In this document: positions 34,497 through 44,076 of the stretch, one piece after another
Position numbering within the stretch: the stretch's first letter is position 1
Layout: the number at the start of each line of letters is the position of its first letter
Assembly (NCBI GenBank): GCA_964641255.1
Contig: CAZXMM010000001.1
Coordinates: forward strand, 143,757 to 207,756
Length of the DNA stretch: 64,000 bases
Direction of reading: 5' to 3'
Source of the DNA: an uncultured Gammaproteobacteria bacterium
Lineage (GTDB): Bacteria > Patescibacteriota > Microgenomatia > JAMCZE01
Position numbers and translations under genes: made by a program
The notes under the pieces: model-generated
Seen by the model: the letters and a program-made list of their open reading frames with translations, nothing else
Database searches by the model: none
Told to the model about the DNA's origin: nothing

Positions 34497-35255
34497 ATGC
34501 TTGATCCTAGTATTTTGGTCGTGTTTTTAGCCGGTCTCATCTCTTTTTTTGCTCCTTGTTTTGTCCCCCTACTGCCGGTCTATATGAGCACTCTCACTGG
34601 CCTGTCGATTCGCGAGCTTAAACAAGTGAAAACAAAATCACGACAGTGGCAAATTCTTGGCACTAGCGCGCTTTTTATTCTGGGGTTTTCCTTGGTTTTT
34701 GTGACTTTAGGACTCAGTGCTAGTGCTATCGGACGCTTTTTCATCAGTAATCGCCTTCTTTTCTCCCAGCTCAGTGGTCTAGTACTCATAGGGTTTGGGC
34801 TCTTTATGTTGGGAATTTTTCGGGGGACTGCTTTGGGGTCGAGGCAATTTGGAGTGGCCCTGCCGAAGGGTTTGATTCATTTCCACTTCCTCGGTCCAGT
34901 TTTTATGGGTGTTGCTTTTGGCTTTGCTTGGACACCTTGTGTTGGTCCCATTTTGGGTTCGGTGCTCACTCTTGCAGCTAACTCTGCTAGTTTGGGGGCG
35001 GGAGTGAAACTGCTGCTTGTGTATAGTTTGGGCATTTCCCTGCCTTTCCTAGTCGTGTCACTGTGTATACACCGGGCTCTGAGCTGGATAGGTCGGTTAC
35101 AGGGTCTTTTGACACTTATAGCTGCTTTGGGCGGTATTTTTACTATTATCCTTGGGGTACTACTTCTTTTGGGACAGTACCCAACGATTATAGGTTCAGT
35201 GACGACAAGATTTTACCCTTCCTTTCTCTATAATTTCATTTTGGGTAGCGTGTAA
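34497..35255 (+). CDS. ccdA: cytochrome c biogenesis/thiol-disulfide transfer protein CcdA family
   Basis: FFAPCFVPLLPVYMS and WTPCVGPILG conserved Cys motifs in a 6-TM protein. Confidence 0.8.
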   Translation: MLDPSILVVFLAGLISFFAPCFVPLLPVYMSTLTGLSIRELKQVKTKSRQWQILGTSALFILGFSLVFVTLGLSASAIGRFFISNRLLFSQLSGLVLIGFGLFMLGIFRGTALGSRQFGVALPKGLIHFHFLGPVFMGVAFGFAWTPCVGPILGSVLTLAANSASLGAGVKLLLVYSLGISLPFLVVSLCIHRALSWIGRLQGLLTLIAALGGIFTIILGVLLLLGQYPTIIGSVTTRFYPSFLYNFILGSV

Positions 35256-35655
35256 AAACAGTTGATCCCGAATAAATCGGGATCAACTAGGCTCAAAATT
35301 GAGAAAGACCAAGCCCAACTTAGGGCGGCGACCGTGATTGCCAAACAATCATATTAAGAATTAAAATGGATAATGCTTCTGATCAGTCCAAAAGGAATGA
35401 ACAGCAAAAAGACGTATGCCTCCATCAGGGTGAGCATGGCCGAAAGAGTTTTTTCTTTCATATCTAATTTTGGCTCACAACTAAGGAGGAATCTCTAAAA
35501 TCAGCTAACCGCTGTGTGGTATTCCTCCTTAGTCTCTTGAGCTTTCCTGGTGTAATGATAAGGGAGAAAGTTGTGCCTAGCTTGAGTATAGGCTGCAAAT
35601 AACCTAGTAACTTAGGCACAAGTTTTCTGAGTTTCCTGAGTAACATCAAGGCGTG

Positions 35656-35684
35656 CGGTTTGCTTGGGGAATAAGCTTATAGTA
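35656..35684 (+). promoter_or_regulatory. sigma70-like promoter (TTGCTT, 17-nt spacer, TATAAT) for the 35696 gene
   Basis: hexamers and spacing read directly. Confidence 0.45.
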
Positions 35685-35695
35685 TAATCAGCTCT

Positions 35696-36109
35696 ATGGT
35701 TGACTCTGAGTTTGAACATCTAGATGAAGCGGTCAGGGAGATCACTCATGATATCCCGGCAAGGTTGTTATTGGGAATGTCTAGGGACGGAAAAGAAACT
35801 CATATAGTTTGTACCAAAGCCGAACTTGACGATTTTGATATTGATTATTATCGCATTGCTATATCCCCTAACGAGATTACGGTTTGGCAACAGCGCCACT
35901 TTTTTTACTGCGAACAAGTGCGACGGCGGACTGTACGAGTAGCCCAAAAAACATTTGGTGGAGCTCTTAACCTTTACCACGACAGTCATGGCTCATCTTT
36001 TGGGTCTTTGCGTAGTAACGACTTGACCCAAAGCAGAGCGGAAACTGGGCCTCATGGCGGACTTCGTCCAGCAGCTAAACCAGAAGAATATATCAACCAT
36101 CATCCCTAG
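35696..36109 (+). CDS. hypothetical protein (no recognisable domain)
   Basis: 137-aa ORF preceded by a good promoter. Confidence 0.35.
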   Translation: MVDSEFEHLDEAVREITHDIPARLLLGMSRDGKETHIVCTKAELDDFDIDYYRIAISPNEITVWQQRHFFYCEQVRRRTVRVAQKTFGGALNLYHDSHGSSFGSLRSNDLTQSRAETGPHGGLRPAAKPEEYINHHP

Positions 36110-36153
36110 GGATATCTATAAACATCGTTTATCTGCCTGAGAGGATTTTTACT

Positions 36154-38046
36154 ATGGCAGGTAAAAAGGCAGAAACAAACCCAAATGGAGGGCTTCTTGG
36201 CAGAAAGCAGGCCCACACTTTAGTAGGAGCTGATACTGATAGACGCCAGCTCAAGAGGATGTTGCACGAAAATCGCGCTACGAGCTCGAGAGCTGCCAGA
36301 GATCTTAGGCTTCAGGCAGCTGTCCAAAACAATATCTTTAATCTTGTCGACTCTATAACCTTCCTGATGCAACAGCCTTCAAATAGTTCAGTGTCCTTAG
36401 CTAATCAGCTTGGAGGCATAGCTGCGCTTCACTCGTTATCTTTTGATCTAACCACACTCGACTCATTAAAATGGCTGGCTAGTCATGTTAAAACAGCCAA
36501 TAGAACCAGTGTCTATGGCCAGGAAGGTTTAGCGGGGGGACTACTAGCGCAAGAGTTGGCATCGGCCCAGATGAATTTAATCAAGCGGGGATTTAGTGAC
36601 GACACAGTTATCGTGGGAACAGATCGGGGACTAAATTCAATACGGGGAGCGATTGTGACTGGAGATACAACAACTCGTTCACTTCTCTATGAGCTTGTAA
36701 CTGGTTCCGCGCTACCCGACTTAACAGAGTTAGGAAGTGTATGCGGTTATGCTGCCGTTTGTATTCATCCCGAAACTGGGGGGTTGGGAAATTATGGCAA
36801 TCTTAGGACTGATGTAGCTGAGAAACTAGCTAAACGTTTAGCGATAAGACTTTTGGACCTAGAGAGGTTTATTAAAGTTGCTAATAATACACGAGTTGAA
36901 AATGTTAGGTCTCCTTTTACACCAGATGCCGCTAAGATTCTAGCGAGTAATGCAGAAACTAACCGGAGAGCACTTGTTAATATGCTAGGAATAATGGGAG
37001 CAGAGTTTTTAGATCAAAATTTGACCTCTTTTCTTACTAGACCTAATTCTCAAAACGTCATTACCAATAATGCGACAATAATCATTGAAACTCTCATTAG
37101 TCGGGGGGTTCATTGGGTAAAGCCTTTAGAAACCATTCGGGATCTGTGCCAGTACTTTTTAGCCGCGGGTAGAGAAGAGCAAGCAAGAGAAATTATTCTT
37201 CAGGCTGCCAAGTCTGGGCTCATTAAGCTGTCGAAGTTTTCTCTAAAGGACTATCAGGATATTGGTTTTCCTTCAAGAAATGCAAAAGAGCATTTCGACT
37301 TTAACCGCGTTTGGTATAAGCATTTTACTAAGCATTGGGACTTTTCCGAAGACCCTTTTAGACATGGATTTGAGAATTTGAGTCATGTCCGTGTTTTTCA
37401 AGGGACACTTTTCCCAACCCATGATGGTCATCGAGCTATAGTTGCAGGAGATATGTTTCAGGGTGTTCGTAGAAGGGGGGTACGAACCGAACTGGTCCCT
37501 CCGGGAACCACATATTTAGTTTCAGTCAATACAACGAGGCCAGAAGGAGATTTTGGCCACACTAACGAGATAGCGCACGTTAATCATCGTCGACGGATCG
37601 CATTGCGGGGCTTTTCGGGGTTGCCCGTGAGGATAACCAGTCTCCCCGGGCGGGGTCCGCTAGCTAACCAAGAGTTAGTGCTGCAAATGGCTGGCGGGGC
37701 ACAAGAATCTAGAGCCTGTGGCCTAGATAGAATAGAAAGCACTTCATCCCTAGTTGCTGATTTAGTGGTGGCTATGAGGGATACTGATTTAAGACGGTTT
37801 CTAGATGATCCTGATAGAGTCCTTAACTTAAGACAAGCGTTTTCAAACGCAAAACAGCTTACTGGACTTGTTCTAAATGGTGTAGAAAGGGCAAGGGGCC
37901 AAAATACTTGGTTCTTGTTTGCCCAATCTCAACGCAGTGATTTGCCGGGAGATGTTAGGGCAGCATACAGAATTATGTTGCAACACGTTATCCACCCCAA
38001 CTCTCTAGCTTATCTCGAAGAGCATGCTGAGGAACTACTTGCCTAG
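36154..38046 (+). CDS. large hypothetical protein (630 aa, no recognisable motifs)
   Basis: long uninterrupted ORF with balanced composition; no nucleotide-binding or known catalytic motif found by eye. Confidence 0.4.
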   Translation: MAGKKAETNPNGGLLGRKQAHTLVGADTDRRQLKRMLHENRATSSRAARDLRLQAAVQNNIFNLVDSITFLMQQPSNSSVSLANQLGGIAALHSLSFDLTTLDSLKWLASHVKTANRTSVYGQEGLAGGLLAQELASAQMNLIKRGFSDDTVIVGTDRGLNSIRGAIVTGDTTTRSLLYELVTGSALPDLTELGSVCGYAAVCIHPETGGLGNYGNLRTDVAEKLAKRLAIRLLDLERFIKVANNTRVENVRSPFTPDAAKILASNAETNRRALVNMLGIMGAEFLDQNLTSFLTRPNSQNVITNNATIIIETLISRGVHWVKPLETIRDLCQYFLAAGREEQAREIILQAAKSGLIKLSKFSLKDYQDIGFPSRNAKEHFDFNRVWYKHFTKHWDFSEDPFRHGFENLSHVRVFQGTLFPTHDGHRAIVAGDMFQGVRRRGVRTELVPPGTTYLVSVNTTRPEGDFGHTNEIAHVNHRRRIALRGFSGLPVRITSLPGRGPLANQELVLQMAGGAQESRACGLDRIESTSSLVADLVVAMRDTDLRRFLDDPDRVLNLRQAFSNAKQLTGLVLNGVERARGQNTWFLFAQSQRSDLPGDVRAAYRIMLQHVIHPNSLAYLEEHAEELLA

Positions 38047-39408
38047 TTTGTATCCCCGTCCTCTAATGGTGGTAATTGAAGAATCTTTCAACCCAATCTT
38101 GGCGAGTTTTTTACGTAGTTTACTCATCAGCTGATCAATGGCCCAATCAGAGTACTTTTCGTATGATTCCTTTCCCCATAACTTTTCTGCCAACACATCA
38201 CGAGAATGAATCTTATCGGGCTCTTGCAAAAAATAAGCGAGAATCTCGTATTCTTGTCTTGTAAACTGATCTTCTATGGATTTGCCGTTAAAGGTTATTG
38301 CTCTAGTATTTTCATCAAACGAAAGCCTGGTCTGTTTTTCATCAACTAGCACTTCCGGCAAAGCTCTTTTGAGGACGGCATCCCTAAATAGTTGACAAAA
38401 AAGCTGATAGTAACCTTCGGGAGACGTGCGTATGATACCCAAGGCTAACAAGGCGTTAGTCTCTTCGTCGTTAGGAAGGTTTACTATTTGTTTGGACGCG
38501 ACTTCATGGAGGAGTTTTTTCATTTTCTGGGTAAAAATTCCTAACATCAGATCTGAGGTGGCGCGAATCTCATAGTTGGAACGAAAGAGTTCTTTGATCT
38601 TATCTACGGTAAACGGTCGGTCTGACGAGTCAGTTTTAGCCAGGGTTTCAAAGGCCAGCTTAAGTAGATAGGGGTGTCCGTCACACATTTCGGATACAAG
38701 CTGTTTCTCGAGAGGGCTTAAAACATAGTCGTACTTCTTTTGGAAAAATTCTAGAAGGTACTCTTCGTTGTCTTTGGAAACAGGAACGAAAAGTAGGTTC
38801 TGGAAAAAAAGATAACCCAACTCTTCCCCGTAGGGATTCTTTTCAAACAACAGCCTTAAATCTTTTATGAGAAAAACATAGTGCAGTTTATCGTCAAAAC
38901 TGTTCCACAGGGAACGAAGATTATTAGAAAATACATTGTTAACAAAGCCTAATTCGTCGATCTCTCCTAAAAAGAGAACCACCTTCATACCAGATTTTGT
39001 AGCTTTACTGATCAGGATCTTAAGGTGTTCGAGCAGTTTAGGATAAGCCAGGAGTTCGTTATCGAATGGAGCAAGGTCGGCTTCGCCAATATCACAATCC
39101 AAATTTTGATTCTTTTGACAAGCCTCAATGAAGGTTTTCCCAATGAGTCTTAGGTATCCAGCCTGACTTTCTTCGGTGAGGTCGAGCGGTTCAACGTAAC
39201 ACAGGAGGTACTTTTGGTAGTCAGGTAAGAATTTACTGAAGAGGTGGATATTATCGATTATAAATCTGTCGACAACCCTCCTCCCTGCTGTAGCGACCCA
39301 TACCGGGGTAACACATTCTCCTTTAGCTATCGCCCTAAAAAGTCTTGCCGCATATTGATCGACATAGTCCTGGGGGAACGGATAGCGAGGATTTACCCCA
39401 TCGCTCAT
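38035..39408 (-). CDS. transcriptional regulator with C-terminal OmpR/PhoB-type winged-helix DNA-binding domain and an uncharacterised about 350-aa N-terminal domain
   Basis: C-terminus RDVLAEKLWG...TIRGRGYKL matches the trans_reg_C wHTH; the N-terminal region lacks receiver-domain Asp/Lys and Walker motifs. Confidence 0.6.
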   Translation of the reverse strand: MSDGVNPRYPFPQDYVDQYAARLFRAIAKGECVTPVWVATAGRRVVDRFIIDNIHLFSKFLPDYQKYLLCYVEPLDLTEESQAGYLRLIGKTFIEACQKNQNLDCDIGEADLAPFDNELLAYPKLLEHLKILISKATKSGMKVVLFLGEIDELGFVNNVFSNNLRSLWNSFDDKLHYVFLIKDLRLLFEKNPYGEELGYLFFQNLLFVPVSKDNEEYLLEFFQKKYDYVLSPLEKQLVSEMCDGHPYLLKLAFETLAKTDSSDRPFTVDKIKELFRSNYEIRATSDLMLGIFTQKMKKLLHEVASKQIVNLPNDEETNALLALGIIRTSPEGYYQLFCQLFRDAVLKRALPEVLVDEKQTRLSFDENTRAITFNGKSIEDQFTRQEYEILAYFLQEPDKIHSRDVLAEKLWGKESYEKYSDWAIDQLMSKLRKKLAKIGLKDSSITTIRGRGYKLGK

Positions 39409-39479
39409 ATTGGTTTGCTTCGGTCAGGATACTCAGATTCTAGTCAGGAAAGAAGGGTCTGTCAACGGGGAGGTTGGGA

Positions 39480-40601
39480 TCAGTCCAAATAGTCTTTGAG
39501 CTTTTTACTGCGACTTGGGTGCTTGAGCTTACGAATAGCCTTCGCCTCGATTTGGCGGATGCGCTCCCGAGTCACTCCAAAAGCTTTGCCGACTTCTTCC
39601 AGGGTTCTGGGTCGTCCGTCTTCCAGCCCAAAGCGCATAATTAAGACTTTTTTCTCCCGGTCGTTGAGGGTAGCTAAGACTTCTTCTAGTTGCTCTTTAA
39701 GCAGGGCCTTACTGGTTTGTTCGTAGGGACTGGGAATGTGTTCGTCGGGCACAAAGTCCCCGAGCTGGGAATCGTCTTCATCACCAATTTTAGTTTGCAG
39801 GGAAGTCGGTTCCTGAGAAATTTTTTGAATCTCGTGGACCTTAGCCACGTCAATTTCCAGCTCTTTGGCAATTTCCTCGGGGAGAGGATCACGCCCCAGT
39901 TCGGCAGTTAGCTTATTACGCAACCTAACGTAGCGATTGATGGTTTCGACCATGTGCACTGGAATCCGAATCGTGCGAGCCTGGTCAGCGATGGCCCGGG
40001 TAATAGCTTGACGAATCCACCAGGTGGCATAGGTGGAGAATTTAAAGCCCCGACGCCAGTCATATTTCTCCGTGGCGCGGATGAGTCCCTGGTTGCCCTC
40101 TTGAATAAGATCGAGCATGGTCATGCCTCGACCCAAGTATTTTTTAGCAATTGAGACAACCAGGCGCAAGTTGGAGGAAATGAGCTTGTCTTTAGCTTTT
40201 CGCTCTCCCTTTTCTGCCCGTTTGGCCAGGTCAACTTCTTCTTTAGCGTTAAGTAGGGGGATGCGGCCAATTTCTTTAAGATACATGCGGACCGGGTCAG
40301 TAACACCGCTTTCATCTAGTCCGGCGATTCCTTCCAGTTCTTTCTCTAAATCGGAGACAGTTTTCTGTCCCTCTTCCAAATCCTCAGCTGTAGTTTCAAA
40401 AATGTCGACCTCAGCGTTGATGAGCAGGTCATAAAATTCGTCCAGTTCTTCTAGATGATCCTCAGCTTTGGGAAAGACTGCTAAAACTTCTTCTTGGGTG
40501 ACAAAACCGGCGGACTTACCTCTTTTGATCAGATCCAGTGCCGCGGGGGGAAGACTGACTTTCGTGGGAAGGACTTTTTTGTTAACCATAATCAGTAGCA
40601 T
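39480..40601 (-). CDS. rpoD: RNA polymerase sigma factor sigma70
   Basis: region 2 [18 protein letters not shown], region 2.4 [13 protein letters not shown], region 4.2 HTH. Confidence 0.95.
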
Positions 40602-40823: not shown

Positions 40824-41708
40824 ATGGGTAGGATATTTACTCTCCTGGTAGTGGCTGTTTTAGTCATTGGTGGAGTCTACGTAGCGGTTGGTGCTGCCTC
40901 CGGAAATTCCCCCCTAGTTTTATTAACTCGTGCCTCGACTGGCAATTCAGTTACCATTAACGGTGGTGCAAAGTCTACCGACTCTCTCAATGTCTCTCTT
41001 GCTCTATCGGCAAAACCCGAAGCCACAGAGATGAAGATAGCTAATAGTCTTGTTGAATTGAAAGTAGCTAAGCCCACGGATTTCACGCCACAGGTCAAGT
41101 GGACACTAGCTAAAGGAGAACCAGGCAAGAGGACGGTGTTCGTTGTCTTTAATAACGGTGCTGAAGAGAGGGTGCAGCCGATGATGCCTGACACTTGGTC
41201 TGCTCCGGTCCTTGCGTCTATTCAATATAGTAATGAAGAGGCGCTCTTGTACCGGGAATTTTACTATACATGTCAGGGGCAGAAACAAAGATCAGGAATC
41301 TCGGAGTGCTCTTCATCTACTCAGTTAAAGACAGTGGCAGTTAAAATTTGTCGAGACAAATTTAGCGCACCGCTTACTGATTTCTCGGTTAATAAAGAAT
41401 CTCTATGCAACAAGAAGCCACCAAAGGAATCTTACCGAGTAGCCTTTTATACCTGCTCAGACAACCATTCTGGGAAATTCGATGCCAACGCCTGCCTAAG
41501 TGAAGAGGCATTAATGGATGGAGCAACAAAATTGTGCAAAATGAGACAAGCAGATTTAGCAAAATTTACCCCCGATACGTCTACCCGGTGTGAGACCGTA
41601 AAGCGAGGACTGGTCTGTATAAACCGTGCTTGCGTCTACGCCGAGGGTGCGGAGGATGATCAGTATTGCAAAAGTAAAAAACCGGGAGAGATTTGTAACC
41701 CCAAGTAA
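40824..41708 (+). CDS. hypothetical secreted cysteine-rich protein
   Basis: signal/anchor N-terminus, 18 Cys in repeated YTC/CxxK contexts. Confidence 0.4.
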   Translation: MGRIFTLLVVAVLVIGGVYVAVGAASGNSPLVLLTRASTGNSVTINGGAKSTDSLNVSLALSAKPEATEMKIANSLVELKVAKPTDFTPQVKWTLAKGEPGKRTVFVVFNNGAEERVQPMMPDTWSAPVLASIQYSNEEALLYREFYYTCQGQKQRSGISECSSSTQLKTVAVKICRDKFSAPLTDFSVNKESLCNKKPPKESYRVAFYTCSDNHSGKFDANACLSEEALMDGATKLCKMRQADLAKFTPDTSTRCETVKRGLVCINRACVYAEGAEDDQYCKSKKPGEICNPK

Positions 41709-44065: not shown

Positions 44066-44076
44066 CGCTAAGTTAG

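Follow-up and report, generated by a model that had tools for sequence, protein, structure and literature searches.

The 64,000-nucleotide stretch analysed here (referred to below as the window; positions 143,757 to 207,756 of contig CAZXMM010000001.1) carries, between ccdA (34497-35255, Pfam DsbD_TM) and rpoD (39480-40601), a block of three open reading frames (ORFs): one of 137 amino acids (aa), a gene for a 630-aa protein that we call the partner and, on the opposite strand, a gene for a 457-aa winged-helix transcription regulator. Further upstream of the block lies the atp operon, and further downstream rpoD is followed by a 294-aa ORF and then by dnaG. All three ORFs were verified as they had been described in an initial annotation of the window, and the same holds for the 12-bp overlap (38035-38046) between the 3' ends of the convergent 630-aa and 457-aa genes and for the 440-bp leader in front of the block (35256-35695), in which promoter-like sites are present and no ORF longer than 61 aa was found. 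We consider it rather likely that the block forms a transcription module which is conserved within the lineage Microgenomates (Patescibacteria) and probably regulates itself. Its genes are the following:

35696-36109, plus strand: 137-aa ORF, the first gene after a conserved 62-nt element; its position is kept between loci, its sequence is not
36154-38046, plus strand: 630-aa partner, with a helical N-domain (residues 1 to about 400) and a C-domain of nucleotidyltransferase fold
38035-39408, minus strand: 457-aa regulator, whose N-domain is probably AAA_35/STAND-like but diverged and which ends in an OmpR/PhoB-type winged helix

Regulator and partner stay paired throughout the Microgenomates lineage

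Homologues of the regulator number at least 161; the 120 listed are nearly all full-length, share 32-68% identity with it and, where the source is named, come from Microgenomates, Woesebacteria or Patescibacteria. A scan with the regulator alignment over one genome per GTDB species added 65 further loci. The pooled data contain 17 distinct loci with an orthologous regulator, defined by E < 1e-160, and in all 17 an ORF of 557-810 aa lies at -31 to +68 nt from the regulator 3' end. The two genes are convergent at 12 of the 17 loci (overlapping at 9) and co-directional at the other five. Likewise, in each of the six regulator-homologue contexts that were fetched first, a large unannotated gene is found at the 3' end of the regulator.

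The related genome that contains locus L003, whose rpoD and dnaG products are 86% and 63% identical to those of the window, has the order rpoD<-dnaG<- regulator-> <-partner, in which the module adjoins the same housekeeping genes as in the window, on the opposite side. Woesebacteria keep the module in a different but stable neighbourhood with genes for Fic, DNA ligase, a cation ATPase and a Na/Ca exchanger, followed downstream by MamF_MmsF and PCMT.

The partner carries a NadD-like nucleotidyltransferase fold

Searched as a single sequence, the 630-aa protein has no match in NCBIfam or PADLOC, and Pfam returns a sub-threshold match to Cytidylate_kin2 only (E 0.14). The word-index search of 5.8 billion proteins retrieved the protein itself and nothing else (from a 950-kb NCBI contig), with the same outcome for an 11-sequence profile, and an exhaustive HMMER search over 1.84 billion representatives yielded just 11 proteins at E <= 1e-3. 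By BLASTP, it is 31% identical to the partner at L002 (E 8e-71), where the regulators of the two loci are 68% identical, and 23% identical to the partner at L003 (E 1e-17), where the corresponding values are 58% for the regulators, 86% for rpoD and 63% for dnaG. Judging by these alignments, the partners form a small and very fast-evolving family, and because they diverge so fast, the apparent orphan status in the word-index search is an artefact. The partners fall into four BLAST clusters; hhalign comparisons of disjoint clusters gave 98.3% (E 1.5e-14) and 98.4% (E 5.8e-15), and a third link (82%, E 1e-5) covers the C-terminal domain only.

Structure prediction with AlphaFold2 from the single sequence was unusable (pLDDT 36.7), while an alignment of 10 sequences gave a model with a pLDDT of 82.8 and a pTM of 0.85, in which residues 1-400 are all-helical and residues 405-630 adopt a beta-alpha-beta Rossmann-type arrangement. 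High-probability Foldseek matches in the PDB are solely NaMN adenylyltransferases, namely 5lm3 (probability 1.00, TMt 0.68), 4x0e (0.99, 0.64) and 1kaq (0.95, 0.62), and the best match in the viral BFVD is a cytidyltransferase-like protein. The profile of the domain, built from 20 sequences, matches NadD 1yul in the PDB with E 5.3e-6 over 198 of 244 positions, spanning both signature motifs, and all 55 of its PDB matches are HIGH-type nucleotidyltransferases (PPAT, ECT, NMNAT, NadR, GCT). A profile of the full-length partner performs more weakly, reaching NadD at E 0.5, and no single partner sequence attains the Pfam CTP_transf_like threshold (best E 0.016-0.05). The corresponding features of the window are:

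37366-38043, plus strand: NadD-like HIGH-motif nucleotidyltransferase domain (residues 405-630, approximately), assigned by Foldseek and the domain profile
37414-37431, plus strand: P421-T-H-D-G-H426, a PxHxGH motif that is intact in the window copy

The motif of the partner family reads G-x-[FY]-x-P-x-[HT]-x-[GA]-H, corresponding to G417-TLF-P421-T-H-D-G-H426 in the window. The (H/T)xGH signature of the superfamily is present there as H423-D-G-H426; across the family its first position is H, T or Q and its third G or A. The initial annotation had seen no recognisable motif in the 630-aa protein, which does not hold in view of P421-T-H-D-G-H426, and the C-terminal 230 or so residues turn out to be a well-known domain, the NadD-like nucleotidyltransferase fold. 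An adenine or nicotinamide-type nucleotide is the most likely ligand of the partner, which may transfer an adenylyl group to a substrate or act only as a sensor of the nucleotide.

One further candidate relative was dismissed. The protein P0126 (4912 aa, with a C-terminal protein-kinase domain) contains 8 stretches matching residues 414-500 of the partner at E 1e-9; since it shows many partial repeat-like Pfam matches, as a eukaryote-type repetitive protein does, we regard the match as a compositional or repeat artefact and not as homology.

The regulator joins an OmpR/PhoB-type winged helix to a probably non-hydrolytic N-domain

Three features of the regulator can be placed on the sequence:

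38044-38265, minus strand: winged-helix domain (residues 382-455), Pfam Trans_reg_C (PF00486), E 3e-17, 62.9 bits against a cut-off of 26.2
38383-38742, minus strand: match to the C-terminal third of AAA_35 (PF14516; residues 223-342), E 6e-4, including the motif C-x-G-H-P-Y
39277-39288, minus strand: A41-G-R-R44 at the predicted Walker-A position, placed by alignment and by collinearity with the AAA_35 profile

Trans_reg_C is matched by all 36 members of the regulator family, and in the PDB the family profile matches the DNA-binding domain of PhoB (1gxp, E 3.8e-12). The recognition-helix region YSDWAIDQLMSKLRKK is almost invariant across the family, for which the alignment shows a mean column identity of 52%. 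A receiver domain (Pfam Response_reg) is not found in the regulator, and the response-regulator models of NCBIfam align to it only from about profile position 117 on, that is, with their winged-helix part. PADLOC has no match to it.

The N-domain matches AAA_35 below threshold in the window (19.2 bits against a gathering score of 27). The match recurs in 28 of the 36 family members, two of which, P0102 (28.8 bits) and P0063 (31.6 bits), exceed the gathering score, and it is collinear, placing regulator residues 217-342 (approximately) on profile positions 205-327 or so of 331, always in the C-terminal third. By this collinearity, residues 1-216 would correspond to the P-loop core that the AAA_35 profile misses. 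At the predicted Walker-A site the regulator reads V-A-T-A-G-R-R (residues 38-44) with G42, R43 and R44 invariant in the 36 sequences; the canonical GxxxxGK[ST] is absent there, and no GK[ST] occurs. A putative Walker-B-like segment is V-V-L-F-L-G-E-I-D-E-L (residues 143-153; FLGE[IF]DEL), in which D151 is invariant, and the GxP-type motif is probably represented by C-x-G-H-P-Y (residues 242-247) with invariant H245-P246. From these motifs, the N-domain is probably a diverged, non-hydrolytic module of the STAND/AAA_35 type and does not appear to be a new fold class on present evidence. Because AGRR stands at the predicted P-loop position, the probable role of the N-domain is to bind a ligand or partner and to oligomerise, and not to hydrolyse ATP.

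Much of what the initial annotation had said of this protein stands: its winged helix is of the OmpR/PhoB type, its N-domain can be classed neither as a receiver nor as a canonical ATPase, it is unlike SARP/AfsR regulators, and both it and the 630-aa protein belong to unannotated families. As to SARP/AfsR, the winged helix is C-terminal here, and BTAD is found in none of the 36 members. The proposed novelty of the N-domain has to be qualified by the sub-threshold AAA_35 match. Remote-homology and structure searches, which had been suggested for both proteins, resolved the partner to the NadD-like fold, whereas the profile of the regulator N-domain has no match in the PDB.

CTGA repeats are enriched at both promoters of the module

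A match of about 40 nt upstream of the partner genes, obtained by blastn of the 440-bp leader against related loci, was extended by iterated nhmmer searches into a conserved 62-nt element. Together with the promoters of the block it comprises these features:

35580-35641, plus strand: conserved 62-nt non-coding element (nhmmer, 16 copies in 12 loci)
35627-35640, plus strand: two direct CTGAG repeats, CTGAGTTTCCTGAG, a putative operator of the winged-helix regulator
35660-35688, plus strand: promoter-like sequence TTGCTT-17-TATAAT, ending 7 nt upstream of the start codon of the 137-aa ORF
39423-39465, minus strand: regulator promoter and putative operator, with TTGACA (39465-39460), CTGAC-TAGAAT (39447-39437), CTGAGT (39436-39431) and CTGAC (39427-39423)

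The element consists of GCTTGAG (-35-like), a gap of 17 nt, TAGTAA (-10-like) inside CCTAGTAA, then AGGCAC and CTGAGTTTCCTGAGT. Its invariant columns read CTTGA, CT, CTA, CTGA and CTGA and form blocks spaced by about 9-12 nt, with a strict 17-nt gap between the -35-like and -10-like parts. All 12 loci contain an orthologous regulator except L026, a paralogue locus. Seen from the regulator, the element always lies beyond the partner gene and points back toward the regulator. It is followed at 25-41 nt by a -10 box of the TAGTATAAT type, which stands 5-8 nt from the ATG in the window, L003, L012 and L018 and 16-17 nt from it in L006 and L014. The short distance in the first four of these, 7 nt for the 137-aa ORF of the window, suggests leaderless mRNAs. 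A metagenome-contig scan with the DNA of the element alone found 8 loci, four of which have a partner-family gene beside the element; one of the loci found in this way, L079, holds a complete module (element -> partner -> facing <- regulator). The module occurs in two architectures:

Class A, element -> (small ORF) -> partner -> facing <- regulator: window, L002, L003, L004, L012, L014, L018, L020, L022, L079
Class B, regulator -> partner -> facing <- small ORF <- element: L006, L081, L083, and, without a clear small ORF, L016 and L028

From the two classes it follows that the element-driven unit always converges on the regulator-driven unit, and that the partner can belong to either.

The promoter of the regulator has the layout cTTGACa-N12-13-CTGA[CG]TA[AG]AAT-CTGA[CG]T-N3-5-CTGA[CG] across loci, with one repeat in the -10 box and one or two just downstream; in the window, CTGAC-TAGAAT fuses a repeat to the -10 box. 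A strict two-repeat CTGA[CG] pattern occurs in the regulator promoter at 13 of the 17 orthologous loci and in the distal element at 12 of 17, compared with a background of 21 matches in 578 kb of non-orthologous loci, both strands counted. The repeats are enriched at both promoters, and we infer from their sequence and placement that CTGA[C/G] is the half-site of the regulator's winged helix and that the regulator would bind at both.

Several loci carry the element in two tandem copies, namely L002 (4495-4556 and 4837-4898), L003 (11276-11336 and 11504-11565), L018 (9859-9919 and 10334-10394) and L028 (9332-9392 and 10555-10616). Extra CTGAG repeats suggest a third copy in L002 and L003, and the two copies in L028 flank an unrelated 324-aa plus-strand gene, to which they are antisense.

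Paralogous regulators have different partners

Regulators that are paralogous to that of the window and share its YSDWAIDQ recognition helix are found at L021, L023-L027 and L029-L075 (e.g. L035 5385-6602, L043 5032-6270 and L051 1604-2851). Their hosts include Microgenomates, Gottesmanbacteria, Roizmanbacteria, Levybacteria and other groups, often with 2-3 copies per genome and sometimes with a tandem pair. Most full-length paralogues precede a different large protein (500-880 aa), mostly without a Pfam domain, and where the paralogous regulator is a distant one, its partner is unrelated to the 630-aa family. The 745-aa partner of the paralogue at L025 (7094-9331, minus strand) has weak matches to MarR/GntR/TrmB-type winged helices in residues 579-734, by which some partners may bind DNA. 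Between their own -35 and -10 boxes, 14 of 57 paralogue promoters carry the palindrome CTGACA-N7-8-TGTCAG, for which the expectation is 0.0056 per 120 nt.

A probable self-regulating module and the alternatives to it

In the reading that we favour, the regulator would be a one-component transcription factor whose winged helix recognises CTGA[C/G]T repeats and whose N-domain, with its AGRR, would serve in ligand or partner binding and oligomerisation. The repeats at 39423-39447 would allow it to repress its own promoter; as they overlap the -10 box and the start region of that promoter, autorepression is implied. The 62-nt element would act as the promoter and operator of the opposing unit, which comprises the 137-aa ORF and then the 630-aa gene, and would place this unit under control of the regulator. 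The two units converge on each other because the element-driven one extends into the regulator gene at its 3' end, where the 12-bp overlap lies. The partner would be a cytoplasmic two-domain protein with a nucleotide-binding and possibly adenylyl-transferring domain. Its nucleotide pocket and the degenerate NTP-binding domain of the regulator may be functionally linked and, speculatively and by analogy with MalT, the partner or the nucleotide bound to it could control the regulator.

Several observations weigh against parts of this reading. The repeats in the element are spaced by 9 bp, below the 10-11 bp typical of OmpR/PhoB sites, and L017 and L019 have no CTGA repeats; in addition, the promoters compared for the putative operator assignment are related and not independent of one another. 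At the co-directional loci L016 and L028, the element is found immediately 3' of the partner and antisense to it, without a clear ORF behind, so that it is not simply the promoter of the partner. The term STAND-like, as applied to the regulator, derives from the C-terminal third of AAA_35 and a reading of motifs, with no profile matching the ATPase core. As for the partner, 16 of 20 members have the final His of HxGH and the remaining four have Y or Q in its place, and the [SH]-S-[ST] (ISST) motif, found in 19 of 20, is lost in the window alone, which has R-G-Q at 581-583 and no frameshift that would explain it. As the window copy has kept HxGH and lost ISST, its catalytic competence is doubtful, and the nucleotidyltransferase domain may be a pseudo-enzyme.

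The initial annotation had taken the block for an inserted accessory island, that is, three genes acquired horizontally between atp/ccdA and rpoD. Such an origin could account for the orphan status of the 630-aa protein in the word-index search and the singleton status of the 137-aa ORF, for the long leader ahead of the block and for the differing neighbourhoods among relatives, and at L002 a DDE transposase is encoded at a distance of about 3 kb from the partner gene. The orphan status, however, is the artefact of fast divergence described above, and the block contains no integrase, is not flanked by repeats and has no tRNA gene beside it, the nearest being tRNA-Ser at 44076. Its GC content (0.40-0.48) is the same as that of the flanks, without compositional shift, and the viral-contig scan found no relatives. 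The synteny comparison, which that annotation had proposed as a check, placed the module beside dnaG-rpoD in L003 and in another stable neighbourhood in Woesebacteria. Since the pair is conserved throughout the lineage (161 homologues; 17 of 17 orthologous loci) and the partner contains a well-known domain, both of them findings that the annotation had named as speaking against its reading, we reject this origin as extremely improbable. A conserved position in the 5' leader, strong conservation and tandem copies in some loci would also suit a structured RNA, and the 62-nt element might be a leader, riboswitch or small RNA instead of a DNA operator or promoter. This we hold to be very unlikely, given that RNAalifold predicts no pairs on the 16 copies, that neither leader nor element matches Rfam, that the short invariant blocks are spaced at about 9-12 nt around a strict 17-nt gap of promoter type, and that identical CTGA repeats recur in the promoter of the regulator, overlapping its -10 box.

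Two further explanations assign the pair to a known kind of process. One is a conflict or defence system in an arms race with phages or hosts, with a STAND-like sensor and a fast-evolving nucleotidyltransferase effector. STAND NTPases are common immune sensors, the partner outpaces the regulator, rpoD and dnaG in divergence (31% against 68% identity; 23% against 58%, 86% and 63%), and several paralogous modules of a regulator and a large unknown protein occur per genome of about 1 Mb. Yet none of the three proteins has a PADLOC match at E <= 1, the predicted P-loop reads AGRR without GK[ST], and the output is a sequence-specific winged helix with a putative autoregulatory operator and not an effector; the neighbourhoods are conserved and of housekeeping type, with no mobile-element association in the viral-contig scan, and HIGH-type nucleotidyltransferases are not known as immune effectors. 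We regard a defence role as unlikely. The other is NAD metabolism, in which the 630-aa protein would be the NaMN/NMN adenylyltransferase of the organism, extended by a regulatory domain, and the regulator would control NAD synthesis in the manner of NadR or NiaR. NadD is the closest relative of the partner both by structure and by profile, PxHxGH is intact in the window, and the 64 kb of the window contain no canonical nadD. An essential NadD, on the other hand, would not drop to 23-31% identity between close relatives, no member reaches the CTP_transf_like threshold, four of 20 members have Y or Q in place of the catalytic His, and ISST is absent from the window copy. Fast divergence and degenerate motifs in the partner sequences argue against its being NadD proper, and we consider this explanation distinctly unlikely.

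Taking the module and its paralogues together, one might go further and propose a Microgenomates-specific expanded family of paralogous switches of 2-3 genes, in which a degenerate-STAND/winged-helix regulator reads CTGAC/G sites, which form direct repeats in one clade and palindromes in other clades, and each has its own large, unannotated and hypervariable partner that makes or senses a nucleotide read by the non-hydrolytic NTP pocket. This extension is rather improbable in our estimate; if true, it would amount to an undescribed one-component signalling logic and possibly to the transcription-factor family that dominates in these minimal genomes.

Relation to known systems

All domains of the module come from known superfamilies. 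The regulator resembles the LAL/MalT family in having an N-terminal STAND/AAA-like domain and a C-terminal DNA-binding domain, and its activity might likewise be set by ligands or protein partners, as that of MalT is by enzymes such as MalK, MalY and Aes. It differs from that family in its OmpR/PhoB winged helix in place of a LuxR HTH (Trans_reg_C being the only match at the C-terminus), in its size, which is half, in lacking a sensor-repeat arm and in its AGRR at the predicted Walker-A site. With SARP/AfsR proteins (OmpR-type winged helix, BTAD and NB-ARC) it shares a winged helix combined with a STAND-type module and the expected binding to direct repeats near promoters; its domain order is reversed, neither BTAD nor TPR is matched, and its NTPase motifs are degenerate. 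OmpR/PhoB regulators, such as PhoB with its pho boxes, have the homologous winged helix, tandem direct repeats at or upstream of -35 and -10 boxes and apparent self-regulation in common with it, whereas here a receiver domain and a cognate kinase are missing and the repeat unit is CTGA[CG]T at 9-11 bp spacing. The likeness to AAA_35 consists of the collinear C-terminal-third match and of two family members above the gathering score, the N-terminal two-thirds with the P-loop core being unmatched by the profile.

The partner has the Rossmann-like fold of NadD, NMNAT and PPAT (TM 0.62-0.68, normalised to the NadD targets) and their (H/T)xGH and [SH]S[ST] signatures. Unlike them, it places this domain after a helical domain of about 400 aa without detectable relatives, stays below the Pfam thresholds, evolves fast and has partly degenerate signatures in the family, with ISST lost in the window copy. 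Unlike in NadR, DNA binding resides on a separate protein.

Searches of the literature on AAA_35/PF14516 and on OmpR regulators of Patescibacteria found nothing relevant. In the literature searched, neither of the two protein families appears to be described, nor does their obligatory pairing, the operator grammar built on CTGA[C/G] or the expansion into several paralogous modules per genome of about 1 Mb. Candidate-phyla-radiation bacteria have genomes of about 1 Mb with few recognisable transcription factors, and almost no regulons are known to have been defined in them experimentally or computationally. The analysis adds a transcription-factor family that is conserved and for which a half-site (CTGA[C/G]), autoregulation and a target promoter are predicted, as well as a NadD-like fold assignment for a "dark" protein family that is an orphan to standard annotation and to the word search of 5.8 billion proteins. 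It also gives evidence that the same regulator scaffold has been duplicated several times per genome, each copy with a different large partner. The predictions can be tested on recombinant proteins without cultivating the organisms.

Leader hairpins, small ORFs and the ORF between rpoD and dnaG

At its ccdA end, the leader begins with a hairpin that the initial annotation had read as the terminator of the preceding operon:

35259-35289, no strand assigned: hairpin with a 13-bp stem directly 3' of the ccdA stop codon; T-run on the minus strand only

The stem is as described, while the T-run lies on the minus strand and not on that of the operon, by which the hairpin may end a minus-strand transcript, instead of or besides the atp/ccdA operon. 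On the minus strand of the leader, a possible 35-aa hydrophobic mini-protein (MKEKTLSAMLTLMEAYVFLLFIPFGLIRSIIHFNS, 35354-35461) precedes this hairpin. The leader also contains a promoter-like site TTGCCA-18-TAAAAT at 35338-35367 and, on the plus strand at 35470-35545, a very stable hairpin (-33.3 kcal/mol, z-score -6.9), whose arms at 35481-35493 and 35520-35532 form a perfect 13-bp stem (ACTAAGGAGGAAT/ATTCCTCCTTAGT) and which includes the Shine-Dalgarno-like AAGGAGG. It is not followed by a U-run, and blastn of the leader showed no conservation of it in related loci.

A gene is called at the 137-aa ORF in public assemblies, and its codon-usage score of 0.084 is inside the in-frame range of the real genes of the window and above every off-frame chunk. 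The protein is a singleton at 90%-identity clustering and, in single-sequence searches, has no match in Pfam, NCBIfam or PADLOC; neither it nor the 294-aa protein has a significant tblastn relative in any related locus fetched. ORFs of 174-217 aa occupy the equivalent position in L006, L014, L018, L081 and L083, so that the sizes after the element span 137-217 aa across loci. Mutual homology of these small ORFs is not demonstrable by sequence, those of L006 and L014 sharing 25% identity over 185 aa (E 1.5). At these two distant loci (L006 11448-12101 and L014 9747-10352, both minus strand) the C-termini are both LPLAA, which recalls the LAA with which ssrA degradation tags end.

The 294-aa ORF between rpoD and dnaG (40824-41708, plus strand) encodes a cysteine-rich protein with a hydrophobic segment at its N-terminus, to which neither Pfam nor NCBIfam has a match. 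As dnaG directly adjoins rpoD in L003, with no such ORF between them, this ORF resembles a lineage-specific insertion more than the three-gene block does.

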